This document shows positions 8,365 through 58,625 of a stretch of DNA of 64,000 nucleotides, one piece after another. The notes below the pieces were generated by a model. That model was not told the DNA's origin. It searched no databases and saw nothing but the letters and a program-made list of their open reading frames with translations. A program made the translations under genes and the position numbers. Each line of letters begins with the position of its first letter. Positions within the stretch are counted from its first letter, which is position 1. Source of the DNA: an uncultured Gammaproteobacteria bacterium (GTDB taxonomy: Bacteria > Pseudomonadota > Gammaproteobacteria > JAURND01); contig CAVQQD010000002.1 in the NCBI GenBank assembly GCA_963714975.1, positions 519,641 through 583,640 on the forward strand. Reading direction: 5' to 3'.

Positions 8365-8799
8365 ATGCAAAATGTGCTAACAGCTTTAGGCGTCAAAGAG
8401 CTTATTCATGTTTTATCTGCAATGGCCGCTTTTAGCGTTATCTGTCTTGGCACTCTGCAAGCCATATTTGTTGCGATTCAAGAACATTTGCTGCGTTATA
8501 ATTATGCGGGTACGGTGATCAAAAAATTGCCTCCGTTAGAGAGGATGGAGACAATCCTATTTCAACTCATTTGGCTAGGATTTATTCTGCTAAGTTTGGT
8601 TCTAATTAGCAGCTTATTCTTTTTCTATCCAGTTTTTTCCCCTTTCTTGTTAGAAAAAACCTTATTAGCAAGTTTTGCTTGGATGATTTATGCTATTTTG
8701 TTATTAGGTCGTTATTTCGTTGGTTGGCGAGGTCGGAAGATTATTTATTACACATTATGTGGGTTTGCCTTATTGGTTATTGTTTATTTTTGTCAGTAG
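8365..8799 (+). CDS. ypjD: YpjD/CcsA-family inner-membrane protein; only the C-terminal roughly 60% appears present
   Basis: The C-terminal half aligns to E. coli YpjD ('...GWRGRKIIYYTLCGFALLVIVYF'). Only 97 bp separate it from the divergent ffh start, so the N-terminal roughly 100 aa of canonical YpjD cannot be encoded. ffh-ypjD-yfjD synteny as in E. coli. Confidence 0.5.
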   Translation: MQNVLTALGVKELIHVLSAMAAFSVICLGTLQAIFVAIQEHLLRYNYAGTVIKKLPPLERMETILFQLIWLGFILLSLVLISSLFFFYPVFSPFLLEKTLLASFAWMIYAILLLGRYFVGWRGRKIIYYTLCGFALLVIVYFCQ

Positions 8800-15462: not shown

Positions 15463-17298
<1,836 letters not shown>

Positions 17299-22566: not shown

Positions 22567-23344
22567 ATTTAAAGCGGGAATTGCGGTTCTAATCCTAAGT
22601 TTATTGACACCGGCCTGCACGCTAACTCCCACGGAGGAGGCGCCGATCATTGATGGCTGGCAACAGCCGGCATTCAGTGGGGATTATCGAGTGCAGCCTG
22701 GGGACACTATTTATTCCATTGCTTGGTCTTTTGGGATGGATTATCGTGCTATTGCTAAGTTCAATCAGCTCACTGAGCCTTACCACTTACATCCTGGACA
22801 GTGGTTGTATATGGCTTCTCGTCCCGCAATTTCTGCTGCAGCTCTGATCCCCGAGGGTGTTGCCCCACGCGTCACCCGTCGGAGCACGGTGGGGTGCCGC
22901 AGCGGCAGGACCCGTCGGGCATCAGGGCTGCAGCGGGAATTGCTGAAGGATCCAGTGCACAGAGATGTGAAAGCGTCGTCCTGGCAATGGCCAACGGTTG
23001 GTAAAGTGGTACGTGGTTATTCACCTGCCTTTGGCGGCAATCGTGGTTTGGATATTAAGGGTAAGTTTAATCAACCGGTGTTAGCCGCTGCGGCAGGTAA
23101 AGTCGTTTATACCGGGTCAAGTATGCCGGGTTATGGTAATTTAATTATCATTAAGCATAATGATAATGATTTGAGCGCTTATGCGTTTAATAAGACCCTG
23201 ATGGTGACGGAAGGCCAGATAGTGAAGACGGGTCAGACGATCGCGATGATGGGGAAAAATGAGCGTGGTGAAACCATGTTGCATTTTGAAATTCGTCGAA
23301 GTGGCAAGCCTGTAGATCCTAGGAGATACTTAAAGAATGATTGA
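22550..23344 (+). CDS. nlpD: LysM/M23-peptidase lipoprotein NlpD-like, with in-frame GC-rich repeat insertion
   Basis: Lipoprotein signal '...LTPAC'; LysM 'YRVQPGDTIYSIAWSFGMDYRAIAKFNQL'; M23 domain 'GGNRGLDIKG...GYGNLIIIKH'. Insertion 22858-22922 translated as 'VAPRVTRRSTVGCRSGRTRRASG'. Confidence 0.8.
   Translation: MPFGNKFKAGIAVLILSLLTPACTLTPTEEAPIIDGWQQPAFSGDYRVQPGDTIYSIAWSFGMDYRAIAKFNQLTEPYHLHPGQWLYMASRPAISAAALIPEGVAPRVTRRSTVGCRSGRTRRASGLQRELLKDPVHRDVKASSWQWPTVGKVVRGYSPAFGGNRGLDIKGKFNQPVLAAAAGKVVYTGSSMPGYGNLIIIKHNDNDLSAYAFNKTLMVTEGQIVKTGQTIAMMGKNERGETMLHFEIRRSGKPVDPRRYLKND
22858..22922. repeat. GC-rich element (same family as in tilS) inserted in frame in nlpD
   Basis: gttgccccacgcgtcacccgtcggagcacggtggggtgccgcagcggcaggacccgtcgggc. 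Confidence 0.75.
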
Positions 23345-25265
23345 GCGCATCCAACGATTAGATACTTTATTAGCAAACCAAATTGCTGCCGGAGAAGTGG
23401 TGAGCCGTCCTGCCTCTGCGTTGAAAGAGTTAGTTGAAAATAGCTTGGATGCGGGGGCAACGCAGATTGAAGTGACGTTAGAAAAAGGCGGTATTCAATT
23501 AATTCGCGTCCGGGATAATGGTCGGGGGATTCATAAAGAAGATTTACCGTTGGCTTTAAGCCGACACGCCACCAGTAAAATTTCCACGCTGGAAGAGTTA
23601 GAATGCATCCAATCCTTAGGTTTTCGTGGAGAAGCTTTGGCGAGCATTGCTTCGGTATCACGTTTGGTTTTAACTTCGCGCCAAGCCAATGAAACTTTGG
23701 CCTGGCAAATTAAAGCGGAAGGTCGGACGGCAGAAATTGAATTTAATCCGGTATCTCATCCCATGGGCAGCACTATTGAAGTGCGCGATTTATTTTTTAA
23801 TACACCAGCGCGGCGAAAATTTTTACGCTCAGAAAAAACCGAATATTCCCACTGTGAGGAATTGATTAATCGCATTGCATTAGCTTCTTTTCATGTTGCT
23901 TTTGTGCTGAAACATAATCAAAAAACTATTTTGCAATTGCCTCCCGCTATTTCTCAAGCAGAACAAGAGCAACGCGTGGGCAAATTGTGCGGAAATTTTT
24001 TTATCGAACAAGCCAAGGCTATACAGATTGGAAACCATTCACCCGTCGTCCCGCTCCCGCGACTTGATCGCGGGATTGTCCGCGGGATCCAGGATCCAGA
24101 AAGCAGGGATGCAGGATTTTCATTAGCGGGTTGGTTGGGCTTGCCGATTATTTCGCGCGCGCAGGCTGATTTGCAATATTTCTATGTCAATGGGCGCATG
24201 GTCCGTGATAAGTTAATTACTCACGCCATTAAACAAGCGTACCACGATGTAATGTATGGTCATCGCTATCCCGCCTATGTGTTATTTCTTAGTTTGGATC
24301 CAACTTTGGTTGATGTTAATGTGCACCCCACAAAATCCGAGGTGCGGTTTCGTGACAGTCGCTTTATTTATGATTTTTTATTTAGTCGCATCCATGAATC
24401 TTTGGCGCAAAAAGAGCAAGTCACCGCTGGAATTTCTGCTATAGCCGATTCAATATTCGCGCCAGAACCATGGGGGATGCAGCATCAATTGCAGATTAGT
24501 GAAGCAAAAGCAGACTACTTAGCGTACCAGGAAATCCCCCCTACCCCTCTTTTTCAAAGGGGGGGCGATAAAATTCCCCCCTTTTTCGAGGATGGGGATC
24601 AAGAAATTCCCCCCTTTGAAAAAGGGGGGGTAGAGGGGATTTCCTGCAGTTTAGCTCCCAGCCCCGTGCGGGAACGACTTGAGGGAGCTCTAGGCTATGC
24701 TCTTGGCCAATTACATGGCATCTTCATCCTAGCCGAAAATCAACAAGGCTTAGTGATTGTCGACATGCACGCCGCTCACGAACGTATTTTGTATGAAGAA
24801 TTAAAGCTAGCTCATCAGCGCGAGAAAATTGTGCGCCAAACCTTGTTAATTCCACTGACTTTATCATTGACGACGCGAGAGGCGGACTATGTGCAAGAAC
24901 AACAAGCTTTGTTTGCTGAGCTTGGGTTTGAACTCGAGCGAATTAGCCCAACGAGTTGTATTATTCGCCAGGTTCCTGTGTTATTGAAACAGGTGGATGT
25001 TTTGCAGTTAATCCGTGATGTGATAGCAGATTTTCTAACTCTGGAGAAAAGCCAGCGCATCGAACAACAATTCCATAAAGTTTTGGCGACTATTGCCTGC
25101 CACAGCTCGGCACGGGCTCATCGCCGTCTTACCCTCCCGGAAATGAATGCACTGTTGCGGCAACTGGAACAGACCGACCGCAGCGGTCAGTGCAATCATG
25201 GCCGTCCTACGATCAGGCAGTTTTCCCTGGAAGAATTGGATAAGTTATTTTTAAGGGGAAGATAA
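23337..25265 (+). CDS. mutL: DNA mismatch repair protein MutL carrying two in-frame repeat insertions in its linker
   Basis: GHKL ATPase motifs (ELVENSLDAGAT, DNGRGI, GFRGEAL); C-terminal dimerisation domain (QCNHGRPT). Insertions at 24041-24117 ('PVVPLPRLDRGIVRGIQDPESRDAGFS') and 24530-24645 ('PTPLFQRGGDKIPPFFEDGDQEIPPFEKGGVEG'). Confidence 0.9.
   Translation: MIERIQRLDTLLANQIAAGEVVSRPASALKELVENSLDAGATQIEVTLEKGGIQLIRVRDNGRGIHKEDLPLALSRHATSKISTLEELECIQSLGFRGEALASIASVSRLVLTSRQANETLAWQIKAEGRTAEIEFNPVSHPMGSTIEVRDLFFNTPARRKFLRSEKTEYSHCEELINRIALASFHVAFVLKHNQKTILQLPPAISQAEQEQRVGKLCGNFFIEQAKAIQIGNHSPVVPLPRLDRGIVRGIQDPESRDAGFSLAGWLGLPIISRAQADLQYFYVNGRMVRDKLITHAIKQAYHDVMYGHRYPAYVLFLSLDPTLVDVNVHPTKSEVRFRDSRFIYDFLFSRIHESLAQKEQVTAGISAIADSIFAPEPWGMQHQLQISEAKADYLAYQEIPPTPLFQRGGDKIPPFFEDGDQEIPPFEKGGVEGISCSLAPSPVRERLEGALGYALGQLHGIFILAENQQGLVIVDMHAAHERILYEELKLAHQREKIVRQTLLIPLTLSLTTREADYVQEQQALFAELGFELERISPTSCIIRQVPVLLKQVDVLQLIRDVIADFLTLEKSQRIEQQFHKVLATIACHSSARAHRRLTLPEMNALLRQLEQTDRSGQCNHGRPTIRQFSLEELDKLFLRGR
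24041..24117. repeat. Partial 'cgtcgtccc...gatcgcgggatcca' family element in frame in the mutL linker
   Basis: acccgtcgtcccgctcccgcgacttgatcgcgggattgtccgcgggatccaggatccagaaagcagggatgcagga; compare 44848-44880. Confidence 0.7.
24530..24645. repeat. Two tandem copies of the 'ccccctttttcaaaggggg' palindromic element in frame in mutL
   Basis: ccccctacccctctttttcaaagggggggcgataaaattcccccctttttcgaggatggggatcaagaaattcccccctttgaaaaagggggggtagagggga. Confidence 0.75.
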
Positions 25266-25280
25266 CACGAGCGCGTTTGA

Positions 25281-26465
25281 TCACTGGATTAAACTAAAAA
25301 TTTTTGCAATATTTTTAAAATTTACCAGATGAAAATCCTCAATTTGCTGTTCGTATTCTCCGGTATAAATTAAAAAACCAGTAGGGCAGCGGTCATTGAC
25401 TAATTTTTTAAAAAACCGCAGATTTTTTAATAACGCGGGATGAAAAGTTTGGGTAGATTTAATTTCAATGGGTATTAGTTGATGACCGACTTTTAATATG
25501 GCGTCTACTTCGTTGTGATGGTTGTCTCGATAATAATAAATTTCTGGTTCCATCGCATGATTCAAGCGAAATTTGATCAATTCTAAGATGGCTAAATTTT
25601 CAAATAACGGACCACGCAGCGGGTCACGATCCAGTTGCTCGGGTGTTTGAATACCTAATAAATAGCTGGCTAAGCCTACATCGGTGCAATAAATTTTTGG
25701 GGACTTAATTATTCGTTTACCAAAATTTTCAAAATAGGGCTGAATTCTAACCATGAGATAAGAAGCTTCTAGTACAGATAACCAATTTTGGATTGTTTTA
25801 TGGGCTACGCCTACATCATTGCCCAAGCTTTCCAGATTTAAAATACTGCCAATTCGTCCGGCGCATAAGCGCATAAACCGCTGAAATTGCGTTAAATCTT
25901 TTACATTAATAATTTGTCGGACATCTCGTTCCACATAAGTTCGTACATAATTTCGATAAGCGAAGCTGGGCTCAAGATCTGAGGCATAAATACGGGGGAA
26001 AAAACCTTTAATTAACAGTTCTGGAAAGGAAAGGGATTGAATTGGTTTTTGTATCTCATCTAAGCTAAGTGGCAGTAAGTCGAATAAGGCAGCACGGCCT
26101 GCCAGTGATTGACTGATCGCTTCTTGCAAAATCAATTGATGGCTGCCCGTTAAAATGAACATGCCTGCTTTTTGCTTTTGATCGACAATGGATTGGATAT
26201 AAGAGAGTAAAGTAGGAACCCGTTGAATCTCATCCAGAATTGCACCTTCTGGGATACTAGCAAGAAAATGTCGAGGGTCAGCTGCAATTAAAGCCCGAGT
26301 GTCAGGCTCTTCTAAATTGAAGTAGGGCTTATGGGGAAATAAATACCTTACCAGGGTAGTTTTACCCGATTGCCGAGGTCCCATTAATACAATCGCAGGG
26401 TATTGCTGAAATGCTTTTTGGACTGCGTCTTCAATTGTTCGCTTAAACATTACCACTCCGTACAA
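25281..26465 (-). CDS. COG1373-type AAA+ ATPase (AAA_14 N-domain plus DUF4143 restriction-endonuclease-like C-domain)
   Basis: Walker A 'LMGPRQSGKTTL', Walker B 'ILDEIQ'; about 390 aa with characteristic C-terminal DUF4143 region; paralog at 27974-29152. Confidence 0.7.
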   Translation of the reverse strand: MYGVVMFKRTIEDAVQKAFQQYPAIVLMGPRQSGKTTLVRYLFPHKPYFNLEEPDTRALIAADPRHFLASIPEGAILDEIQRVPTLLSYIQSIVDQKQKAGMFILTGSHQLILQEAISQSLAGRAALFDLLPLSLDEIQKPIQSLSFPELLIKGFFPRIYASDLEPSFAYRNYVRTYVERDVRQIINVKDLTQFQRFMRLCAGRIGSILNLESLGNDVGVAHKTIQNWLSVLEASYLMVRIQPYFENFGKRIIKSPKIYCTDVGLASYLLGIQTPEQLDRDPLRGPLFENLAILELIKFRLNHAMEPEIYYYRDNHHNEVDAILKVGHQLIPIEIKSTQTFHPALLKNLRFFKKLVNDRCPTGFLIYTGEYEQQIEDFHLVNFKNIAKIFSLIQ

Positions 26466-27973: not shown

Positions 27974-29152
27974 ATGCTTATTCATCGCCTATTAGAAAAT
28001 GCTCTGCTTAAATATCTGGGAAAAGGTAAGAGCATTTTATTGTTGGGGCCGCGACAAACTGGCAAAACCACTCTAATTAATCAATTATCTTTCACTCGTC
28101 TGATTTCTCTAGCCAATCCTCAAGAACGCTTGCGCTATGAAAAGCAGCCTGAGCTGTTAACCGCGGAAATGGAAGCTCTTGCGGCAGCAAGTGCAGGTCA
28201 GCGTCCTTTAATTGTCGTTGATGAGATACAAAAAATTCCGTTTCTGCTGGATGCTATTCAAGATTTAATTGATAGAAAGATAGCGCAATTTGTTTTGACA
28301 GGTTCATCAGCAAGAAAGTTGCGTAAAGGCACGCAGGTTAATTTATTACCTGGACGCGTTATTCCGTTACGCTTAGATCCTTTATTACAAAGTGAAATAC
28401 CAACGGAATTGTGTGAACTCAATCATTTGATTTTAGATGGTTGTTTGCCGGAAATTGTGCTGGAAAAGGATGCGCAGATGCGCGAGACTTTGCTTGATGC
28501 TTATGTCACTATTTATCTCGAGGAAGAAATTCGTGCTGAGGCTCGTGTGCGAGAATTAGGCCTTTTTGCTCGCTTTCTTGAACTTGCGGCATCTGAATCA
28601 GGTAAAATTGTTAATCTCAGTAAATTATCGCAAGAAATTGGCGTCTCACATTCAACCATTGCAGGGTATTATCAAATACTTGAAGATTGTTTAATCGTAG
28701 AACGCATTGAGCCTATCACCACGAGTAAAGTTCGCAAAAAATTATCCCGATCTCAAAAATATTTATTCTATGATTTGGGGGTCAGGCGGGTTGCTGCTCG
28801 TGAAGGGAGGCGCTTATCTCGCGATCAATTAGGACATTTGTTTGAACAATATGTCGGATTAGAGCTAATTAAGTTATTACGCTTATCATATCCTCGTTTT
28901 GTTCTCAAATATTGGCGCGATCCTGGTGGACCTGAAGTGGATTGGGTCGTTGAGACGGATTCGGGGTATATTCCTATTGAAATTAAGTCTACCACTGCAC
29001 CTGGAGTTCAAGATGCCAAGTATCTGCAGATTTTTTTAAATGAATACCCGCAAGCTAAACAAGCTTATATTATTTGCCAAAGCCCACATCCGATGAAAAT
29101 TGCGAGCAATATAACAGCTTTACCCTGGCAACGCCTCGCGGAGATTTTTTGA
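27974..29152 (+). CDS. COG1373-type AAA+ ATPase (AAA_14 plus DUF4143), second paralog
   Basis: Walker A 'LLGPRQTGKTTL', Walker B 'VVDEIQ'; same architecture as 25281-26465. Confidence 0.7.
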   Translation: MLIHRLLENALLKYLGKGKSILLLGPRQTGKTTLINQLSFTRLISLANPQERLRYEKQPELLTAEMEALAAASAGQRPLIVVDEIQKIPFLLDAIQDLIDRKIAQFVLTGSSARKLRKGTQVNLLPGRVIPLRLDPLLQSEIPTELCELNHLILDGCLPEIVLEKDAQMRETLLDAYVTIYLEEEIRAEARVRELGLFARFLELAASESGKIVNLSKLSQEIGVSHSTIAGYYQILEDCLIVERIEPITTSKVRKKLSRSQKYLFYDLGVRRVAAREGRRLSRDQLGHLFEQYVGLELIKLLRLSYPRFVLKYWRDPGGPEVDWVVETDSGYIPIEIKSTTAPGVQDAKYLQIFLNEYPQAKQAYIICQSPHPMKIASNITALPWQRLAEIF

Positions 29153-29156
29153 ATGG

Positions 29157-29228
29157 ATCCTGACCATTCTGACACCAATTCCGTTTTGGTCATGACTAAA
29201 ACGGAATTGGTGTCAGAATGGTCAGGAT
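29157..29228. repeat. 72-bp near-perfect palindrome (32-bp arms, GTCATGAC centre) between ATPase paralog 2 and clpB
   Basis: atcctgaccattctgacaccaattccgttttgGTCATGACtaaaacggaattggtgtcagaatggtcaggat; one mismatch; no trailing T-run. Confidence 0.8.
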
Positions 29229-29305
29229 GATATTATCATTTGAAACTCTGAGCAGGATCCCCATATTATGGTTAATGAACTTAACTCTTGAAATCGGAGG
29301 AAATA

Positions 29306-31898
29306 ATGCCACGACTAGATAAATTCACCACCTCATTTCAAAATGCCATCATGGATGCCAAATCCATGGCGTTAGGCTTAGATAACCAAGTGATCGAACC
29401 CTTGCATCTAATGAAAGCTTTACTCGAGCAAGAGGCAGGAACAGTGCCGGCTTTGTTAGAACAAGCAGGGGTCAATCTTAATCAATTCCAAGCAAAGCTA
29501 CAGCAAGCATTAGATCGTGTACCCAAAGTGGAGGGAGCTGGCGGTGAATTAATGATTTCTCATGAATTAGATCGCTTGCTGAATGTGATGGATAAATTAG
29601 CGCGAGAGCGAAATGATGCTTTTATTGCTTCTGAACTTTTTGTAGTCGCTGCTCTCAAGGATCGAGGTGAATTAGGGCGAATTCTGCGAGAATCAGGCGC
29701 CAATGAAGCAGCGTTATTAAGCGCCATTGATAAAATTCGAGGAGGAGAGCGAGTGGAAAATCCAGAATCTGAAGGTCAACGTCAAGCCTTGGAAAAATAT
29801 ACGATTGATTTAACTGCCATGGCGAGAAAGGGTAAATTAGATCCAGTCATTGGTCGTGATGCGGTGATTATGCGCGTGATTCAAGTGTTGCAACGTCGCA
29901 CTAAAAATAATCCCGTGTTGATTGGCGAACCTGGGGTGGGTAAAACAGCTATTGTGGAAGGATTGGCGCAGCGTATTGTCAATGGTGAAGTTCCTGAGGC
30001 GATGAAAAATAAACGCATTTTGGCCTTAGACATGGGTGCATTAATTGCCGGGGCGAAATTTCGTGGTGAATTTGAAGAACGTTTAAAAGCGGTGTTAAAA
30101 GATTTAGCCAAACAAGAAGGCCAAATTATTTTATTTATTGATGAATTGCATACGATGGTGGGGGCGGGAAAAGCAGAAGGTGCCATGGATGCAGGTAATA
30201 TGTTAAAACCTGCTTTAGCACGAGGTGAATTGCATTGTGTTGGCGCGACCACATTAGATGAATATCGCAAATATATTGAAAAAGATGCAGCGTTAGAACG
30301 TCGTTTTCAAAAAGTATTAGTGGATGAACCCAGCGTTGAGGATACCATTGCTATTTTGCGTGGCTTAAAAGAACGTTATGAAGTGCATCATGGCGTAGAA
30401 ATTACTGATCCTGCCATTGTCGCTGCGGCCACCTTATCGCATCGTTATATTACTGATCGAAATTTGCCTGATAAAGCCATTGATTTAATGGATGAAGCAG
30501 CCAGTCAAATTCGCATGGAAATTGATTCCAAACCGGAAGAAATGGATCGATTAGAACGACGCTTAATTCAATTAAAAATTGAACGCGAGGCTTTGAAAAA
30601 AGAAAAAGATGAAGCCACTAAAAAACGCTTAGAACGATTTAGAAACAGAAATTCAAGCAAATTAGAAAAAGAATATGCGGATTTAGAAGAAGATTTGGAA
30701 AGCAGAAAAAGCCAGCTTGCAAGGCACGCAGCAAATTAAAGAAGCACTGGAACAAGCGCAGTGTAGAATTAGAAGCTGCACGTCGTGCCGGTGATTTAGC
30801 GCGCATGTCGGAATTACAATATGGCCGTATTCCTGAGTTAGAAAAACAATTAGCGAAGCTGCCAATTCAGCAGAAAGAAAGGCAACATAAATTATTACGT
30901 AATAAAGTGACTGAAGAAGAAATTGCTGAAGTTGTTTCAAAATGGACGCATATTCCTGTAGCAAAAATGATGGAAGGTGAGCGAGAAAAATTATTGCATA
31001 TGGAAGAAGCGTTGCATAAACGTGTTGATTGGTCAAGATGAAGCGATTAAAGTCGTTTCTAATGCGATTCGCCGTTCGCGCGCTGGGTTGTCTGATCCTA
31101 ATCGACCCATTGGTTCTTTTTTATTTTTGGGCCCCACCGGTGTTGGTAAAACTGAATTATGTAAGGCCTTAGCTGGATTTTTATTTGATACTGAAGAGGC
31201 GATGGTGCGTATTGATATGTCTGAATTTATGGAAAAACATTCGGTGGCGCGATTAATTGGCGCGCCTCCTGGTTATGTAGGTTATGAAGAAGGTGGTTAT
31301 TTAACCGAAGCAGTGCGTCGTCAGACCTTATTCGTGTGATTTTGTTAGATGAAATTGAAAAAGCACATACGGATGTATTTAATATTTTATTGCAAGTGTT
31401 AGATGATGGTCGTTTAACCGATGGTCAAGGGCGCACAGTTGATTTTCGTAATACGGTGATGGTCATGACTTCAAATTTAGGTTCGCATTTGATTCAAGAA
31501 TTGTAGCTGACGAAAGTTATACAGTAATGAAAAAAGCCGTGATGGAAATTGTTAGCAAACATTTTCGTCCTGAATTTATTAATCGAATTGATGAAATGGT
31601 GGTATTTCATCCCTTGGATAAAGAGCAGATTACCAGGATTGCTGCGTTGCAAATGGAGCAAGTGCGAAAACGCCTGCAGGAAAAAGAATTACAATTACAG
31701 CTTGATGAGCCTATTTTAGATTTCTTAGCTGATGCGGGCTATGATCCTGTTTATGGCGCCAGACCATTGAAACGTGCCATCCAGCAATATCTAGAAAATC
31801 CTTTGGCGCAGGATATTTTGTCCGGAAAATTTTTGCCAGGGGACACTATCGTGGTGAGTATGCGTGATCGTGGTGGGTTAAGGTTTGAGAAGGGATAA
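29306..31898 (+). pseudogene. clpB: Chaperone ClpB, disrupted by six single-base indels
   Basis: RBS GGAGGAAATA then '[24 protein letters not shown]'. Four ORF pieces (29306-30739, 30805-31041, 30977-31339, 31527-31898) plus an untracked piece (31336-31506 '[41 protein letters not shown]'). Indels reconstructed at about 30695, 30765, 31033, 31318, 31332 and 31506. No in-frame nonsense or obvious missense decay otherwise. Confidence 0.8.
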
Positions 31899-32961: not shown

Positions 32962-33056
32962 GTGTCATCCCGAGCGCAGCGAGGGATCTGTTGTTCATGC
33001 CACATTCATGAGAATCCCTCGCTTCGCTCGGGATGACACCGCTCGGGATGACACCT
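32962..33056. repeat. Dispersed palindromic element (gtcatcccgagcgaagcgagggatc family) abutting the maeB stop codon
   Basis: gtgtcatcccgagcgcagcgagggatctgttgttcatgccacattcatgagaatccctcgcttcgctcgggatgacaccgctcgggatgacacc; 'gccacattcatgaga' block shared with 58563-58625. Confidence 0.75.
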
Positions 33057-34770: not shown

Positions 34771-34830
34771 GTGTCATCCCGACTCCAGGGTTGTCATCCC
34801 GAACGAAGTGAGGGATCCCTCGCTGCGCTC
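34771..34830. repeat. Inverted arm and core of a gtcatcccga-family element immediately upstream of maeB
   Basis: gtgtcatcccgactccagggttgtcatcccgaacgaagtgagggatccctcgctgcgctc. Confidence 0.75.
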
Positions 34831-35057
34831 GGGATGACACCCTGGAGTCGGGATGACACCCTGGAGTCGGGATGACACCCTGGAGTCGGGATGACACCCT
34901 GGAGTCGGGATGACACCCTGGAGTCGGGATGACACCCTGGAGTCGGGATGACACCCTGGAGTCGGGATGACACCCTGGAGTCGGGATGACACCCTGGAGT
35001 CGGGATGACACCCTGGAGTCGGGATGACACCCTGGAGTCGGGATGATGCCCCGAGAG
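34831..35057. repeat. Tandem repeat: 19-bp unit gggatgacaccctggagtc x 11 perfect copies plus a degenerate 12th
   Basis: Units begin at 34831, 34850, 34869 ... 35021; derived from the right arm of the adjacent palindromic element. Not CRISPR-like (no spacers). The three overlapping minus-strand ORFs with 19-aa repeats in the track are artefacts of this array. Confidence 0.9.
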
Positions 35058-39229: not shown

Positions 39230-40260
39230 ATGAAAATTTTATTTTGGTTAACAGGACTAGCACTGCTAGTCTCAAGTGCTGCCTTAGCGGACACCATATT
39301 AACTGGAGCGGGTGCCACTTTCCCTTATCCACTTTACGTCAAATGGGCACAGGCCTATCAGAAGAAAATCGCTGTGCGTTTAAATTATCAACCTATTGGT
39401 TCGGGTGGCGGTATTAATCAGATACAAGCTAAAACAGTGGATTTTGGCGCTTCAGATAAGCCTTTATCGAAAGAAGAGTTAACAGCTAGTCACTTAATCC
39501 AATTTCCTACAGTGGTGGGTGGGGTGGTTCCTGTGATTAATTTGCTTGGAATCCCCAGTGGACAGCTGAAACTTTCAGGTCCAGTCTTAGCCAATATTTA
39601 TTTAGGTAAAATTAAAAAATGGAATGACCCAGCCATTGTGGCTTTAAATCCACAGCTTTCCCTACCGAATAAAGGTATTGTAGTAGTCCATCGTTCTGAT
39701 GGTTCAGGGACAAGCTATCTCTTTACCTACTATTTAAGTCAGGTAAGCCCAGAATGGCAAACGCGGGTAGGTAGTAATACAGCAGTGGCTTGGCCTGTGG
39801 GAATTGGCGGGAAAGGTAATGAAGGGGTAGCTTCCTATACCCAGCGGGTCAATGGCAGTATTGGTTATGTTGAGTATGTCTATGCGGCACAAAATAAACT
39901 GAACTATGTGCAATTGATTAATCAAGCAGGCCATGCAGTTTCTCCTTCATTAGAATCTTTTGAAGCAGCGGTAAGTCAGCTACTTGGGATTCAGAGCAGC
40001 AATTTGCTGGCAGCATTACCAATAGCCCAGGTGCAGATAGTTGGCCTATTACTGGCGCCACATTTATCCTGATGCAAACTGAACAAGATAATCCTGAAAA
40101 AGCCAAGGCAGTATTGGCATTCTTTGCTTGGGCCTATAAAGAGGGACAAGCAATGACCAAGGAATTAGATTATGTTCCTTTAGAAGATAAGGAAATTCAG
40201 CTAATTCAAGCCTCTTGGAAGCAAAATATTAAAGACAAGGCAGGAAACCCCATTTGGTAA
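39230..40260 (+). CDS. pstS: Phosphate ABC transporter substrate-binding protein PstS, apparent single-base deletion frameshift near 39967
   Basis: CAGGAG RBS; signal peptide; PstS sequence. The C-terminal 95 aa continue in the +1 frame ('...ASGKSATWDSEQQFAGSITNSPGADSWPITGATFILMQTEQD...[10 protein letters not shown]'). Two ORFs in the track (39230-40072, 40072-40260). Confidence 0.75.
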
Positions 40261-45991: not shown

Positions 45992-46032
45992 ATCAGTCAT
46001 GAGATCCCTCGCTTCGCTCGGGAGGACAGCTG

Positions 46033-46071: not shown

Positions 46072-47094
46072 TCATATTTCTCCTAACAATTGAGCAATTA
46101 GTTCGGGACTGGGTAATTGGCTTTTTAACTCCTTGGGCAATTTAGTAAATACTCGATATTGAGCAACACCAATAGGTTTATTTGCATCATGCAAAGTATA
46201 TTCAACAATAGTTTTGCGCTTGCTTTTGCAAAGAATAATGCCTATGGATGGGTTTTCATCTGGCAATCTTACCTGCACATCCAGGGCGCGTAGATAAAAT
46301 TGCATCTTGCCAACATATTCTGGCTCAAATTCTCCTATTTTTAATTCTACCGCTACGAGTGCCTTCAGTTGACGATGATATAGCAAAATATCAATGAAAA
46401 ACTCCCTGTTGTCTACTTCAAGCTTATATTGGCTGCCAACAAATGTGAAAATTCCACCCATTTCTCTTAGGAAATGCTCTATTTTCGCCAAAAGTGCTTG
46501 TTCCAGCTCATGCTCACTGTGGGCTTCACCCAATTCCAAAAAGTCAAAAGTGTACTCATCTTTAACTGCCAATTTAGCTTGTGTTTTGATTTCTTTAGGC
46601 AGGGTGTTTTCAAAATTGTTTTGATTTAAAAGGGTTTTTTCGTAGGCTTGATTTTCAATTTGGTGGATAAGGACATTTTTTGACCAGCCAAATTTGCGAG
46701 TCATCCGTAGGTAAAACTCGCACTGCAGCTCGTCCTTACACTGATCCATAATGATGAGATTATTAGACCAGCTAATTTCTCTCACCAGTGGTGAGAGTTT
46801 TGGGTTTTGGTGGTAAGTTTCGTAAAATGAGCGCATTCGCCATAAATTAGGGGCAGAAAAACCTTTTATTTCAGGAAAATCTATTTTTAAATCATTAGCT
46901 AATTGTTCTACTACAGACTTCCCCCAACCTTCTATTCGCTGACGTTCAATAATCATTTTTCCAATATCCCAATAAAGTCCCACTAGTGTTTTATTAACTG
47001 TTTTTAACGCTTCATATTGTGCCTCAGCAATGCGGGTCTTGATTTCTTTCAGGAGGCTGGCATAGTTTTTTATTTTTTGGTTAGTTGATGTCAT
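46072..47094 (-). CDS. YhcG-family PDDEXK nuclease (DUF1016 N-domain plus restriction-endonuclease-like C-domain)
   Basis: 'FTFVGSQYKLEVDNREFFIDILLYHRQLKALVAVELKIGEFEPEYVGKMQFYLRALD' matches the YhcG/DUF1016 signature. Start at 'MTSTNQKIKNYASLL'. Confidence 0.75.
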   Translation of the reverse strand: MTSTNQKIKNYASLLKEIKTRIAEAQYEALKTVNKTLVGLYWDIGKMIIERQRIEGWGKSVVEQLANDLKIDFPEIKGFSAPNLWRMRSFYETYHQNPKLSPLVREISWSNNLIIMDQCKDELQCEFYLRMTRKFGWSKNVLIHQIENQAYEKTLLNQNNFENTLPKEIKTQAKLAVKDEYTFDFLELGEAHSEHELEQALLAKIEHFLREMGGIFTFVGSQYKLEVDNREFFIDILLYHRQLKALVAVELKIGEFEPEYVGKMQFYLRALDVQVRLPDENPSIGIILCKSKRKTIVEYTLHDANKPIGVAQYRVFTKLPKELKSQLPSPELIAQLLGEI

Positions 47095-47161
47095 TGGAAT
47101 ATTCAGCAGGTGAATCAAGCATTTAAAATCTTCTAGGGGACGTGCGCAAAATAACTTCAAA

Positions 47162-47668
47162 CTATTGTGCACGTTCCTTTGTTCCTACCATCACGCAGAG
47201 TGCATAACAAGGTTCAGAATTATTATTGATCCAAGTATGTTCTGGACCAACCTGTACTAGAAAATCTCCAGCATGTAAATCAATTTTATTTTTACCGACA
47301 ATGCAGGTAATTGATCCAGATAAAATGAAAATATAATCCACTGAATTGGTGCTGTGTAGGTTAAATTTTGTCCAATCTGTGGGAATAGCTTGCCCAGAAT
47401 TTTGCAGGTCTGCGGCTATTTGTGCTTGGGTGGGCATACAAATCTTTAAAAACCGCATCGCACCCTCTGGCAAGTGAAGATCGTAAATATTATCTAGATG
47501 TCGAGTTGCCAAGGTTTGTGGATTTTCTTCTGTATAGAAAAGGTCCTGCAAATAAAAAGAGGGAAGAGAAGGGTATGGTGCAAGAGCTGCAATTTTTTCA
47601 TCGGCAAGGATGGTTGACTTTTGATTGGCATTGATGCCTGATATAACTCTGCGGGTTTTTTTTAACAT
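47162..47668 (-). CDS. Cupin-domain protein
   Basis: 'HAGDFLVQVGPEHTWINNNSEPCYALCVM' cupin beta-barrel motif region; 168 aa. Confidence 0.5.
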   Translation of the reverse strand: MLKKTRRVISGINANQKSTILADEKIAALAPYPSLPSFYLQDLFYTEENPQTLATRHLDNIYDLHLPEGAMRFLKICMPTQAQIAADLQNSGQAIPTDWTKFNLHSTNSVDYIFILSGSITCIVGKNKIDLHAGDFLVQVGPEHTWINNNSEPCYALCVMVGTKERAQ

Positions 47669-47700
47669 TTTTTATCCTTTTTAGGTTAAGCCACCGCGAT

Positions 47701-47725
47701 TTGAGGTCACAATTTGTGACCTCAA
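47701..47725. promoter_or_regulatory. Perfect 12-1-12 inverted repeat TTGAGGTCACAA-t-TTGTGACCTCAA about 35 bp upstream of the cupin gene; candidate operator
   Basis: Read directly; lies between the HTH regulator gene (stop 47869) and the cupin start (47668). Confidence 0.45.
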
Positions 47726-47868
47726 ACTTTCAAATTCCTGAGGAAAAAGAACTGGTAAGAAATTTTGACCGGTTTTAAAGGCTACAATGATTCGTGTGCT
47801 TCTGCTCTTACCGCGACTTGTTGGTAATTCGTTTTATTACGCCATGGCCATAATAAACATAGTAAGTA

Positions 47869-48255
47869 TTATGCCGTCTTATTCTCTGTGTGCTTTTTCC
47901 AATGTATACCCAACATCACATTAAATTTCGTAGCTTTGGCGATAGGGCAAATAGTTCTATGACGTTTTTCGAGCCTCACAAAACCATAAGCCGACAGTGT
48001 TTTTAATGTCCTAGACAAGTTATTGAGTTGACGTCCTGTGATCGCAGCTAATTCACTTATAGAATCAGGTTTTTTCTCTGTAATAATTTGTAATAAGGCT
48101 TGATTTTCATCACTTAATACCTCTGCGAGTGACCTTATTGAAGTAAACCAAATTTTAGGCTCATCTGGTTTTGGTTTGTATTTACCTTGTGCAACCGCAA
48201 GCGTTCGTTCTCTGATTTCTTTTTGCGACATAAGGCCAATTCTGACAGTCTTCAT
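47869..48255 (-). CDS. Predicted winged-helix transcriptional regulator (COG4190-like)
   Basis: 'MKTVRIGLMSQKEIRERTLAVAQGKYKPKPDEPKIWFTSIRSLAEVLSDENQALLQII' resembles conserved COG4190 predicted-regulator sequences; 128 aa. Confidence 0.5.
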   Translation of the reverse strand: MKTVRIGLMSQKEIRERTLAVAQGKYKPKPDEPKIWFTSIRSLAEVLSDENQALLQIITEKKPDSISELAAITGRQLNNLSRTLKTLSAYGFVRLEKRHRTICPIAKATKFNVMLGIHWKKHTENKTA

Positions 48256-48368
48256 TATGGTTACTCCTTTATTCCGAGTGCATTCAATCTCTCCAATCCT
48301 AGCTTAAAACAAGGGGTCCCCTCAACCGTAAGAACGTAGGAACCCCCTCATCTCAAGTTTATTACTTC

Positions 48369-48827
48369 TTAGAACAAACCGGTCTGTTTTTTCTGCGTGA
48401 GCAGGTCCATGAACCGGTTACATTCTTCCCAGGGTACGTCCCCATGACGATAACTCAGCGCTTTACACAGCAAGCGGCAGAATTCACCATGGTAGACGGG
48501 ATATTTCACAAAGCTAAAAACATAAGCTCCGCCAGCTACGATTTCTGCAATGGCTCGTGAGAACATATGCAAATACTCCAGATGCTCCTTAAATTCTCGG
48601 TAGCGTATGAAGGTTTGCAGGCGAGACTCATAGATGCATAGCAGACGCCCATCGGTTAAGATTGCCGTGAAACTAAGCCCCACTAACGCGGAGATTTCAC
48701 GTAAATACTCTTTCTCGTTGGGATCGCATACGTCGCAGTAACGTTTGAAGCTAGAGTGGAATATTTCAGCAAGACGATAAATGTCGTTGCTCGATAGCGG
48801 CAAAGCCGCTAAAGTAGGATTAGCCAT
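48369..48827 (-). CDS. Hypothetical protein upstream of and co-directional with the HTH regulator
   Basis: 152-aa ORF; no recognised motif. Confidence 0.35.
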   Translation of the reverse strand: MANPTLAALPLSSNDIYRLAEIFHSSFKRYCDVCDPNEKEYLREISALVGLSFTAILTDGRLLCIYESRLQTFIRYREFKEHLEYLHMFSRAIAEIVAGGAYVFSFVKYPVYHGEFCRLLCKALSYRHGDVPWEECNRFMDLLTQKKQTGLF

Positions 48828-49190
48828 CTTGACCTCCTATAACAGGTTAATTTGGTTAGCATCGTCATTGGGCTGCAATCCCTTTGACGGTGCGCTTACA
48901 AGATACGGAGACATTTGCTCCCCATTGGAAAACTGATGTCTCCATCTCCCGCTTCCTTGTAGTGGATTTAATACACAACAAGAAAGCGAGTTGATTATCC
49001 CCTCTAAGAAAAAGCCTGTCAACGCGGGTTTCAAATTTTTTAAATTAGGTGAGTTTACTGTGTCTTCGATGGGCGAATAGTATATTGTTATTCATTTCTT
49101 TCAATACTTTAGTTGTTTTGGTTGTGACAGAACTGATGCACCCAAGGTTGAACAACAGAATTCACAAAACCGTCCATCGGAGGTTTAAGC

Positions 49191-49406
49191 ATGTCACAGA
49201 TCCCACCCTGCCTCGAACAAATTTTTGACGATCTAAATAACAGTGATGAATTCAAAATTCTTCTCATTATTTTTGCTGCCTGTATAGTAGTAGCAATGGG
49301 CCTATTTCCCCTTCTGGGTTCTTGCTGCTGCGGAATTCAGGATCAAGGAGCGCCGGATAATAACAATCCACCACTTCCACAAAACCAAATGCGTACGACG
49401 CAGTAG
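49191..49406 (+). CDS. Small hypothetical membrane protein with Cys-rich segment
   Basis: 71 aa; 'ILLIIFAACIVVAMGLFPLLGSCCCG' single TM. Confidence 0.3.
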   Translation: MSQIPPCLEQIFDDLNNSDEFKILLIIFAACIVVAMGLFPLLGSCCCGIQDQGAPDNNNPPLPQNQMRTTQ

Positions 49407-49429
49407 CTTCAGAAGGCCAGCCTTGAGGA

Positions 49430-50511
49430 TTAACGCAACTTCAGCGAAGCGAGTCCGCATAGCACCAGCATGAAGGTAATAATCCAAAACCGCACGATTA
49501 CTCGAGGTTCAGGCCAGCCTTTGAGCTCAAAATGGTGATGAAGGGGAGCCATTTTAAAAATACGTTTACCGGTGAGCTTAAATGAAGCGACCTGTAATAT
49601 CACCGAAAGCGTTTCTATTACAAATACCCCGCCCATAATAAAGAGCACTAATTCTTGGCGAACAATTACTGCCACAATACCTAAAGCAGCGCCTAGTCCT
49701 AAAGCGCCTACATCACCCATAAATACCTGGGCAGGATAAGTGTTGAACCATAAAAAGCCTAAGCCTGCTCCGACCAGAGCGGCGCAAAAGACTGCGACTT
49801 CTCCTGCACCAGGGACATAGGGAATGGTTAAATATTTAGAAAATTCAAAATTACCACTTAAATAAGCAAAAATAGCCATAGCGCCAGCGACCATTACTGT
49901 GGGCAGAATGGCCAGCCCATCTAGGCCATCAGTCAGGTTGACGGCATTACTGGTGCCGACAATCACAAAATAAGCCAATAAAATATACAACAAACCTAAG
50001 TTAATACTGACATTCTTGAGATAGGGAATTAACAACTGGGTTTCAGCAGGTGTTTTCGCCATGTAGTAGAGAATAACAGCGATGGTAATACCCAATATAG
50101 ATTGCCAAAGATATTTCCAGCGCGCTGGTAAACCACTGGGTGATTTCTTGCTAAGTTTTAGATAATCATCTAACCATCCAATAATGCCAAATCCCAGCAT
50201 ACCAAACAGGGTTAGCCAAATGTAGGGATTGGCTAAATACCCCACAACAAAATGCTGGCGCTGATAGCAATGAGGATTAGGGTGCCTCCCATAGTGGGTG
50301 TGCCGGCTTTGGAGAAATGGCTCTTCGGTCCATCGTTGCGCACCACTTGCCCGACTTGATGATGACTGAGCGCATCAATCATTTTGGGGCCGACAATCAG
50401 AGCGATCACCAGCGCAGTGAGCGCGGCGAGAATCGAGCGAAAAGTGAGATATTGAAAAACCCGAAAGCCTTCGTAATAGTGTTGTAAAAATTGCGTTAGC
50501 CAAAGTAACAT
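49430..50511 (-). CDS. mraY: Phospho-N-acetylmuramoyl-pentapeptide transferase; apparent -1 error in a G4 run near 50246
   Basis: Two ORFs (50233-50511, 49430-50245) align to MraY. Adding one G to 'ttgtggggtattta' restores '...[14 protein letters not shown]...'. Confidence 0.85.
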
Positions 50512-50512
50512 A

Positions 50513-51926
50513 TTAAGCCTCTCCTTCTAAAGCAGCGACAATTTTCCCATTTTGCATCGAGCGCGATCCTTTAATCAATGCGGTCGTTTGAGCATTAAGT
50601 TGTAATTTCAAGGCAGCAATTAATTGCTGTTGTTCAGAAAAATGTTGGGCTTGCTGACCAAAGGCTGCTACTGCTAAGCGGCTCAACTCACCATAGGCAA
50701 ATAATTGCGTAATGCCCAAACGCTGTGCTTCATAGCCAAGCAATTTTAATGAAATATTCGGGCCCATAGGAGCCTAATTCTTTCATGTCGGCAAGTACCA
50801 AAATTTTAATTCCGGGCATATGAGCTAATACTTCAATAGCTGCTTGGGCTGAGCGTGGATTGGCATTGTAACTATCATCAATAATCCGTGCGCCATTGGT
50901 TAAGTATTTTATTTGTAAGCGTTTGTTTACCGCTTGAGTATTTTCCAAGCCCTGTTTTATCGCAGTCAATGGTATATTCAGTGCGCAAGCGCAAGCAGCT
51001 GCTGCCAAGGCATTGGCAATATTATGTTTTCCTAGCAGAGGCAGTTGAATAAAAATGGTTCCATAGGGGGTATGTAGAGTAAATTCAGGATTTCCTTCGG
51101 GATTTATTAAGGGACTTTCTGCCCAAATAGATGCTTTTTTCTGAAGGCCAAAGTGGAGAATTTTCTTGGTTGGCACGAGAGATTCCCAATAGGGGGCAAA
51201 GTGATCGTCAGCATTAATGATGGCAATTCCAGTCTCATCGAGTCCGCGAAAAATTTCGCCTTTTGCCTGTGCTACTCCTTCTAGAGTTTGTACTCCTTGC
51301 AAATGAGCAGGTGCTGCATTAGTAATTAGGGCAATGGTCGGATGAGCGAGCTGCGATAAATGAGCAATTTCACCAAAATGATTCATCCCTATTTCAATCA
51401 CGGCATATTGATGATCAGAATTTAATCCCAATAGGGTCAGCGGGACACCGATTTCATTATTAAAACTTTTTTCGCTAGCCAAAACTTTGTTGGATCCCTC
51501 GCTGCGCTCGGGATGACACCCCTGCTCGGGATGACACGCCTGCTCGGGATGACCCCCCCCCTGCTGCAGAATGCTGGCGAGCATAGAGCGCACGGTAGTT
51601 TTACCACAACTACCGGTGATGCCGATCATTGGCAGCGTAAATTGTTGCCGATGAAAACGCGCAAATTGTCCCAGTGCCTGAATCGTGTCGTTGACTTGTA
51701 GCTGTGGTAGCGGGCAGGGCAGGGGGTGCTGGACCAAGGCGGCAGCGGCCTGCTGTTGTTTTGCCATGGCAATAAAATCATGGCCATCGAAATGAGGGCC
51801 TTTGATGGCGACAAATAATTCTCCAGGTTGTAAGCTGCGGGTATCCGTGCTCACACCTTGAAAACAGACATCTGCGCCTAACAGTTGGCCGCTAAGTAAA
51901 TGGCTAAGACTTGAAAGTTGTATCAT
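50513..51926 (-). CDS. murF: UDP-MurNAc-pentapeptide synthetase MurF; apparent single-base indel near 50760, plus an in-frame repeat insertion
   Basis: ORFs 50730-51926 and 50513-50767 match the MurF N- and C-terminal parts. Frame change at 'tatgggcccgaat' (ggg/ccc runs). The 51492-51561 element is translated '[23 protein letters not shown]' just after the P-loop 'GSCGKTT'. Confidence 0.85.
51492..51561. repeat. gtcatcccga-family element with three partial 15-bp tandem units and a C9 homopolymer, in frame inside murF
   Basis: ggatccctcgctgcgctcgggatgacacccctgctcgggatgacacgcctgctcgggatgaccccccccc; C-run 51553-51561. Confidence 0.8.
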
Positions 51927-58467: not shown

Positions 58468-58625
58468 GGAAATCCCCTCTCCCCCGCCTGAGCGTCAGCG
58501 AAGGAAGGTGGGAGAGGGTTAGGGAGAGGGGGGTGGTGGATCTGGCTCTGCCCTCATCCGTATGCTTTGCCACATTCATGAGATCCCTCGCTTCGCTCGG
58601 GATGACATCTTTCGCTCGGATGACA
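58468..58625. repeat. Cluster of a gggagaggg-family element and a gtcatcccga-family element upstream of the ankyrin-like ORF
   Basis: tcccctctcccccgcctgagcgtcagcgaaggaaggtgggagagggttagggagaggggggtgg then gccacattcatgagatccctcgcttcgctcgggatgacatctttcgctcggatgacacc. Confidence 0.75.

Follow-up and report, generated by a model that had tools for sequence, protein, structure and literature searches.

The clpB gene at positions 29306-31898 on the forward strand of the window (the whole 64,000-nucleotide stretch of DNA analyzed here) raises the question of whether a major disaggregase gene is broken in this organism or only in its sequence record. As written, the gene spans 2593 nt, and its open reading frame stops after 477 amino acids; from the ORF listing and a three-frame translation, the coding path runs through frames 2, 0, 1, 2, 0, 1 and 0 in turn. 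An earlier note had counted six single-base indels in an otherwise undamaged gene and offered three readings: inactivation in the very recent past through some process prone to indels, a locally error-rich region of the assembly, or a pseudogene under unusual constraint. Our analysis points to the second of these. The organism’s clpB is most likely intact and controlled by sigma32, and the insertions probably reflect consensus sequence that, in this one patch, was polished too little or collapsed wrongly, a reading to which we assign a probability of roughly 0.8.

The identity of the gene is clear. The first 477 amino acids of the ORF match the E. coli ClpB structures with E=1e-212, and the closest proteins in a collection of 5.8 billion sequences are intact ClpBs of 856-861 amino acids from uncultured Gammaproteobacteria, at identities of at most 83 %. 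When the 10-13 inserted bases described below are removed, the conceptual gene measures 2580-2583 nt and encodes 859-860 amino acids. This repaired product passes the ClpB models NF008118 (1512.1 bits; cutoff 1417) and TIGR03346 (1452.6 bits; cutoff 1232.1) and covers model positions 2-850 of 857. The 477-residue ORF as written reaches 787 bits, below the ClpB equivalog cutoff. On the models for ClpV, ClpA, ClpK and ClpG, the repaired product falls short of every cutoff. Like E. coli ClpB (PDB 4d2q/6rn2), the repaired product comprises an N-domain, NBD1, an M-domain coiled coil, which aligns to 120 relatives, and NBD2. It shares with canonical ClpB both Walker A/B pairs (GEPGVGKT at 207, ILFIDE at 275, GPTGVGKT at 606 and one more at 674), the pore loops (AKFRGEFE at 250 and GYVG at 653) and the sensor-2 GAR motif (GARPLKR at 813), and the 859-residue version contains no stop codon. 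It departs from canonical ClpB in lineage-specific substitutions that precede the NBD1 Walker A motif, and the window’s ORF departs from it in ending after 477 residues. Upstream, the expression signals of the gene are intact:

29240-29266, forward strand: heat-shock promoter of the sigma32 (RpoH) type, TTGAAA-N13-CCCCATAT, read from the sequence
29296-29301, forward strand: GGAGGA, ribosome-binding site, separated by 4 nt from the start codon ATG at 29306

We take the promoter to fit the sigma32 consensus.

The frameshifts were located with a purpose-written protein-to-DNA aligner that makes explicit frameshift moves. With a stiff frameshift penalty, all five references agreed on +1 shifts at about 30692, 30762, 31027, 31322 and 31335 and on a -1 shift at about 31501-4. 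To within 3-6 nt, these switches coincide with the six sites that the earlier note had proposed, which bears out its placement of the damage. In the same alignment, every reference required codon gaps at about 30645 and about 30856-89. A second run, in which +1, +2 and -1 moves were allowed at a lower penalty, used eight intact reference ClpBs that are 79-83 % identical to the window’s ClpB. All eight returned an identical set of eight robust events, every one an insertion, and a further pair of insertions is probable. Together they amount to 10-13 extra bases and lie within 30632-31505 (874 bp). Frameshift-aware alignment called no frameshift in the first 1.3 kb of clpB, and 21 control alignments of genes from three intact relatives gave no interior frameshift calls. 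The insertions, labeled j1 to j8 for the robust events and jA and jB for the probable pair, are as follows:

30632-30638, forward strand: j1, +1, GAACGAT read as two codons plus one base; masked by j2; 8 of 8 references
30654-30658, forward strand: j2, +2 or two +1 insertions, CAAGC read as one codon plus two bases; returns the sequence to the nominal frame; 8 of 8 references
30689-30692, forward strand: j3, +1, GAAG, with E encoded by GAA or GAG; placed at 30695 by the earlier note; frameshift-aware alignment
30759-30762, forward strand: j4, +1, CAGT; previously placed at 30765; frameshift-aware alignment
30853-30854 (to 30856), forward strand: jA, probable +2, tta GC gaa; masked, paired with jB; 3-4 of 8 references
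30888, forward strand: jB, probable +1, aca T aaa; resets the frame after jA; 3-4 of 8 references
31024-31027, forward strand: j5, +1, GTTG, with V encoded by GTT or GTG; previously placed at 31033; frameshift-aware alignment
31322-31325, forward strand: j6, +1, CAGA, with R encoded by CGA or AGA; not a homopolymer; previously placed at 31318; frameshift-aware alignment
31332-31335, forward strand: j7, +1, TCGT, with S encoded by TCG or TCT; not a homopolymer; previously placed at 31332; frameshift-aware alignment
31504-31505 (placed from 31501), forward strand: j8, +2, ttg TA gct; +2 preferred by 8 of 8 references once that move is permitted

The earlier count of six was therefore too low: at least eight events are present, and j1/j2, together with the probable jA/jB, had gone unseen because each set restores the frame. 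At j1/j2, all 40 aligned relatives read KKRL-xx-LE-x-E-I-x-KLEKEY, and the window’s nominal frame is one residue longer. Between the two insertions this frame encodes ERFRNRNSS where all 40 relatives have xxLExEIx, and frame 0 reads NDLETEIQ exactly where the nominal frame departs from them; at j1 its DLETEI agrees with the xxLExEI of all 40. In the same way, repair of jA recovers two conserved residues, A and E, in the variable loop of the M-domain, and acceptance of the jA/jB pair adds 7.6 bits to the profile score. At the 3′ end of the patch, what had been taken for the loss of a g at 31506 is more plausibly a gain of two bases. With j8 as a +2 insertion the sequence becomes LIQELADESY, equal in length to every relative, whereas the deletion reading leaves it one residue too long. 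An extra t at 30695, as had been proposed, is likewise improbable, for its removal would replace an I/V present in all 40 aligned relatives. The profile scores follow the same progression. Removal of the six indels originally listed gives 1633.7 bits, below the lowest-scoring intact reference (1648.7), removal of the eight robust events gives 1684.2 bits, and removal of all ten gives 1691.8 bits.

Upon close examination, the events share a signature. All eight robust insertions, and all ten when the probable pair is included, add one or two bases, and no deletion is present. In curated bacterial pseudogenes, 300 insertions stand against 396 deletions, and direct repeats result from about half of the insertions (PMC6054270). 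Given a natural insertion fraction of 300/696, eight insertions out of eight have a probability of about 0.001. The sites CAGT (j4), CAGA (j6) and TCGT (j7) are explained neither by homopolymer slippage nor by duplication of a neighboring base, whichever base is removed, so that a homopolymer-related or 454/nanopore-type cause of the cluster is ruled out for at least these three. Nor do the two-base insertions TA and GC duplicate the bases beside them. No repeats or duplications flank the indel zone. A systematic error or site-specific process linked to a sequence motif was rejected as well, since max-statistic permutations gave no 4-5-mer signal; an enrichment of GATT/ATT that we had noticed by eye did not hold, the ATT signal being lost at ±2-4 nt. 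At most of the clpB sites, more than one base could be the inserted one. At four of the six +1 junctions, the four bases consist of a codon and its synonymous alternative base (GAA|G, GTT|G, TCG|T and C|AGA), as if both alleles of a wobble-position SNP had been kept. By our own estimate, this arrangement arises by chance with a probability of about 0.37 per site, so that four of six carries P ~0.14, and we regard the pattern as suggestive.

We compared this patch with the frameshift background of the window. The background set comprised 12 genes covering 13.4 kb, aligned with the same aligner to proteins from the contig of the closest relative (L081), which is syntenic with the window downstream of clpB, and to E. 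coli dcw proteins. Three robust, isolated frameshifts emerged, with mixed directions:

about 39960-77: -1 frameshift in a pstS-like gene, by frameshift-aware alignment
about 50241: -1 frameshift in mraY, a G-run one G short, by frameshift-aware alignment
about 50741-50790: +1 frameshift in murF, by frameshift-aware alignment

This corresponds to about one frameshift per 4.5 kb. The nine other neighboring genes tested were clean, and ftsI, murE, rsmH and mraZ, which neighbor mraY and murF, are intact. Further calls in pepC92 (35102), ASL (37366) and the termini of ftsI proved to be artefacts of alignment ends, and Pfam scans of 30 further ORFs revealed no other clearly split gene. In the clpB patch there is about one event per 90 bp, a density some 40-50 times that of the background genes. 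By our calculation, a Poisson process at the background rate predicts 0.2 events in 874 bp, against at least eight observed (P ~4e-11). The earlier impression of an indel density far above background thus holds, now with 8-10 events in 874 bp set against three in the background genes. Because mraY and murF are essential cell-wall genes, their disruption shows that the assembly has frameshifts for which a biological origin is improbable.

The conservation of the encoded protein provides a separate measure of damage. We compared the repaired product with 120 intact ClpBs, treating residues 441-735 as the indel zone and the 440 residues before it as the N-terminal part. In the indel zone, none of the 142 columns that are at least 98 % conserved deviates, and two of the 190 columns conserved at 90 % or more do (intact isolated references: 3.5 ± 1.7). 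Both of these lie in the stretch between jA and jB and vanish if that pair is accepted. The N-terminal part deviates at 16 of 292 columns conserved at 90 % or more. A leave-one-out comparison had suggested relaxed constraint in this half of the protein; the excess fell within range when calibrated on 30 equally isolated intact ClpBs (7.0 ± 3.5, maximum 16), with the window’s value at the top of that range. A cluster of substitutions at residues 171-191 reads TAMARKG... where the relatives have TxRAExG...RDxEIRRTIQ. It does not hide a compensated frameshift, since translation in the other frames does not yield the canonical motif, and an assembly error leaves this cluster unaddressed. Thus, the description of the gene as otherwise undamaged stands: no stop interrupts the repaired frame, every motif is present, and the N-terminal deviations stay within the range of intact proteins.

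These observations bear directly on whether clpB could be a long-standing pseudogene of a genome in decay, its sequence kept under unusual constraint. The gene does carry several frame disruptions, other genes in the window are broken, and its 16 N-terminal deviations equal the highest number among comparable intact ClpBs. In these respects it resembles the pseudogenes of reductive genomes such as those of the Ca. Burkholderia leaf-nodule symbionts, with several indels in one gene, further genes that are disrupted and numerous small repeats (PMC6054270). Those pseudogenes, however, are deletion-biased, vary widely in indel size and show elevated non-synonymous change (PMC6054270), whereas in clpB deletions are absent, every event is +1 or +2 and conserved sites show no surplus of change. 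An N-terminal count of 16 is matched by the maximum among intact isolated relatives, and neither the promoter nor the ribosome-binding site is damaged. Decay of the gene would also have to accommodate codons that lie past a frameshift, in a frame that is not translated, and that selection cannot preserve; a product truncated at residue ~477 offers selection no hold on the 142 near-invariant positions, all of which are unchanged. In bacterial mutation spectra, substitutions outnumber indels about ten-fold. Therefore, 8-10 neutral indels should be accompanied by dozens of substitutions, and by our estimate the chance that even ten substitutions would all miss the 142 invariant codons is only about 0.01. 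What we find in clpB is neither an excess of substitutions, nor in-frame stops, nor a natural indel spectrum, and we consider a constrained pseudogene effectively ruled out. Still harder to credit is a gene that functions as written, with programmed ribosomal frameshifting or recoding at each site. Each frame segment does encode perfect ClpB sequence, as such a gene would require. Eight to ten recoding events would then be needed in one mRNA, at sites that share no slippery or other motif and with frame-0 stops up to 15 codons beyond the points of shift, and one frame suffices for ClpB in each of the 120 relatives.

A more serious contender is a set of genuine insertions of very recent date, introduced by an error-prone synthesis event or a short burst over a tract of ~0.9 kb, in this clone or in some genome copies of a population that is polyploid or heterogeneous. 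A single repair tract would leave insertions clustered as tightly as these, which are confined to 874 bp and spare the 1.3 kb before it, and the absence of substitutions is compatible with extreme recency. To this extent, the proposal of a very recent inactivation is tenable in its timing; it would require an indel-prone process that makes solely +1 and +2 insertions outside repeats within 874 bp, unlike the natural bacterial spectrum. The natural spectrum is deletion-biased, with direct repeats formed by about half of its insertions (PMC6054270). The full-length MutL encoded in the window gives no hint of a mismatch-repair defect, and the frameshifts in mraY and murF, unlikely to be biological, lie in the same window. 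We know of no bacterial process that yields only non-repeat +1 and +2 insertions, nor, to our knowledge, has such an insertion-only, non-repeat signature been described for bacteria. We therefore judge a recent real burst unlikely. Less likely again is the narrower version in which an untemplated burst of +1 and +2 insertions genuinely occurred over one ~0.9-kb tract, or in which one clpB allele among several genome copies or strains is defective.

Rather, we favor a local assembly error, because the events are exclusively insertions, share no motif and come with no substitution damage, because essential genes in the same window are frameshifted, and because the source contig is megabase-long (1.24 Mb). 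Of the three explanations originally offered, the error-rich assembly region is thus the one that these data support. The 8-10 small insertions at 30632-31505 would be consensus errors in a single patch of about 0.9 kb, which may be a stretch of low read depth or one in which polishing failed. One way for polishing to fail would be the collapse of reads that stem from slightly divergent strains or copies of the genome: where variants lie close together, such reads could misalign and leave spurious extra bases. We infer the artefact from the signature that the sequence carries rather than from direct observation, and we likewise infer both a long-read, possibly metagenome-derived, source assembly and the collapsed-variant mechanism.

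Several features of the source are in line with this. Five of the window’s proteins are recorded on one NCBI/ENA contig of 1,240,461 bp, and the nearest relatives lie on megabase contigs with Flye-style ‘contig_N’ names. The genome is also rich in a 25-nt palindromic repeat. Taken together, the 1.24-Mb contig, the repeat-rich genome and the Flye-style relatives are suggestive of a long-read assembly and do not amount to proof. Misalignment at closely spaced allelic variants is documented to introduce indel errors, and with them false frameshifts, into a collapsed long-read consensus (PMC8445201), and PMC12007338 treats gene-fragmenting indels as a recognized long-read artefact. The window resembles such assemblies (PMC12007338, ‘Kastor’; PMC8445201, Trypanosoma brucei, collapsed versus phased) in its frameshifted but otherwise undamaged conserved genes, in the involvement of essential genes and in its megabase-scale contig, a match by signature only. 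It differs from them in that its errors are concentrated about 40-fold in 874 bp, are exclusively insertions and lie mostly outside homopolymers.

A homopolymer-type error does fit the isolated mraY lesion. Residual nanopore consensus errors are usually homopolymer deletions, as in mraY, not random insertions, and the clpB patch therefore requires a second mode of error. Cross-mapping of reads driven by extreme nucleotide conservation was considered and set aside: the indel zone is 0.69-0.87 identical to its relatives at the nucleotide level, not above the clean NBD1 stretch, and conservation-driven cross-mapping thus fails to explain where the patch lies. Conspecific DNA was not found in metagenome scans that used as query either a downstream lineage-specific gene or an indel-tolerant DNA pattern across j6/j7. 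In a scan of a genome collection, the best match among the matches listed was 78 %.

If the insertions are artefactual, as we favor, the lesson concerns data quality: the conserved genes tested in this window contain a frameshift about every 4.5 kb, plus at least one dense patch. Beyond what the earlier note had recognized, all clpB lesions are insertions, and a third of them compensate one another’s frame and are invisible to ORF-based checks. Frameshift scans that rely on stop codons alone would overlook this third, and frame-cancelling errors silently corrupt the protein, as in the ERFRNRNSS that replaces the ED-LETEI-K indicated by the relatives; the probable jA/jB pair would alter the translated M-domain loop just as silently. 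Pseudogene counts, or a claimed loss of clpB, mraY or murF in this lineage, would then be wrong. If the insertions were instead real, they would be evidence of a mutational process new to science that makes insertions only, and a genome of free-living type would have lost a major disaggregase. Most probably, clpB is an ordinary gene in this organism, and the defect is one of sequence quality.

Isolated frameshifts occur in three window genes outside clpB, two of which (mraY and murF) are essential cell-wall genes.

~50241: mraY frameshift, one G short in a G-run
~50741-50790: murF frameshift, one base extra, possibly in a T-run
~39960-39977: frameshift in the pstS-like phosphate-binding-protein gene, one base missing

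Three further genes show possible coding anomalies.

8365-8799, + strand: ypjD/CcsA-like ORF adjoining ffh
15463-17298: pyrG (CTP synthase), with ~45 additional residues within the GATase domain
23337-25265: mutL, with ~40 additional residues between the ATPase and DNA_mis_repair domains

The ypjD/CcsA-like ORF matches profile positions 73-202 of 212 only and has space for at most ~166 amino acids, so that it may be truncated at its N terminus or carry another frameshift. The extra residues in CTP synthase and MutL may be more in-frame insertions; the tail of the pyrG ORF reads across two copies of the 25-nt repeat described below.

Within the N-terminal part of ClpB, several substitutions are grouped at positions whose conservation among 120 intact ClpBs is 91-100%.

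29815-29885: ClpB substitution cluster, residues 171-191

The changes comprise R to M (twice), E to R, E to V and T to V, and the invariant R189 is among the altered positions. Alternative reading frames do not explain the cluster, and a frame error was therefore rejected. The cluster may be lineage-specific, with the motif becoming more ClpC-like, or an error of another kind.

Upstream of clpB, the surroundings differ from those in the closest relative (contig L081): synteny is kept downstream of clpB and lost at two DUF4143/AAA_14 genes.

25281-26465, - strand: DUF4143/AAA_14 ATPase gene
27974-29152, + strand: DUF4143/AAA_14 ATPase gene
29157-29228: 72-nt palindrome, flanked by the DUF4143 ATPase gene on one side and the clpB promoter on the other

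The palindrome, termed perfect, has 36-nt arms that are 97% complementary and no loop. It could act as a terminator or an operator, or be the scar of a mobile element.

The cell-wall cluster is not continued by murD.

46072-49430, - strand: region at the end of the dcw cluster mraZ-rsmH-ftsL-ftsI-murE-murF-mraY, which stops after mraY

Rather than by murD, mraY is followed by a 152-aa ORF without assignment and an ORF of HTH type, together with genes for a cupin and for a PDDEXK nuclease of the YhcG type.

The window contains nine copies of a palindromic 25-nt repeat, GTCATCCCGAGCGCAGCGAGGGATC, with none expected by chance.

17183-17252, 32964-33037, 34793-34838, 46003-46027, 51493-51517, 58582-58606: 25-nt palindromic repeat
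51493-51560, - strand: one repeat copy plus two 18-nt partial tandem copies, in frame within murF

Inverted pairs spaced 20-50 nt apart are frequent, and most copies lie at gene ends or between genes, a placement resembling that of REP/MITE-type elements. A VIPSAKN-like peptide tail in the closest relative is related to this repeat. In murF, a run of nine G immediately precedes the in-frame copy, and the insertion adds ~21 residues that E. coli MurF lacks. This arrangement, in an essential gene, resembles the in-frame palindromic elements that occur in Rickettsia genes; it could alternatively be an assembly problem.
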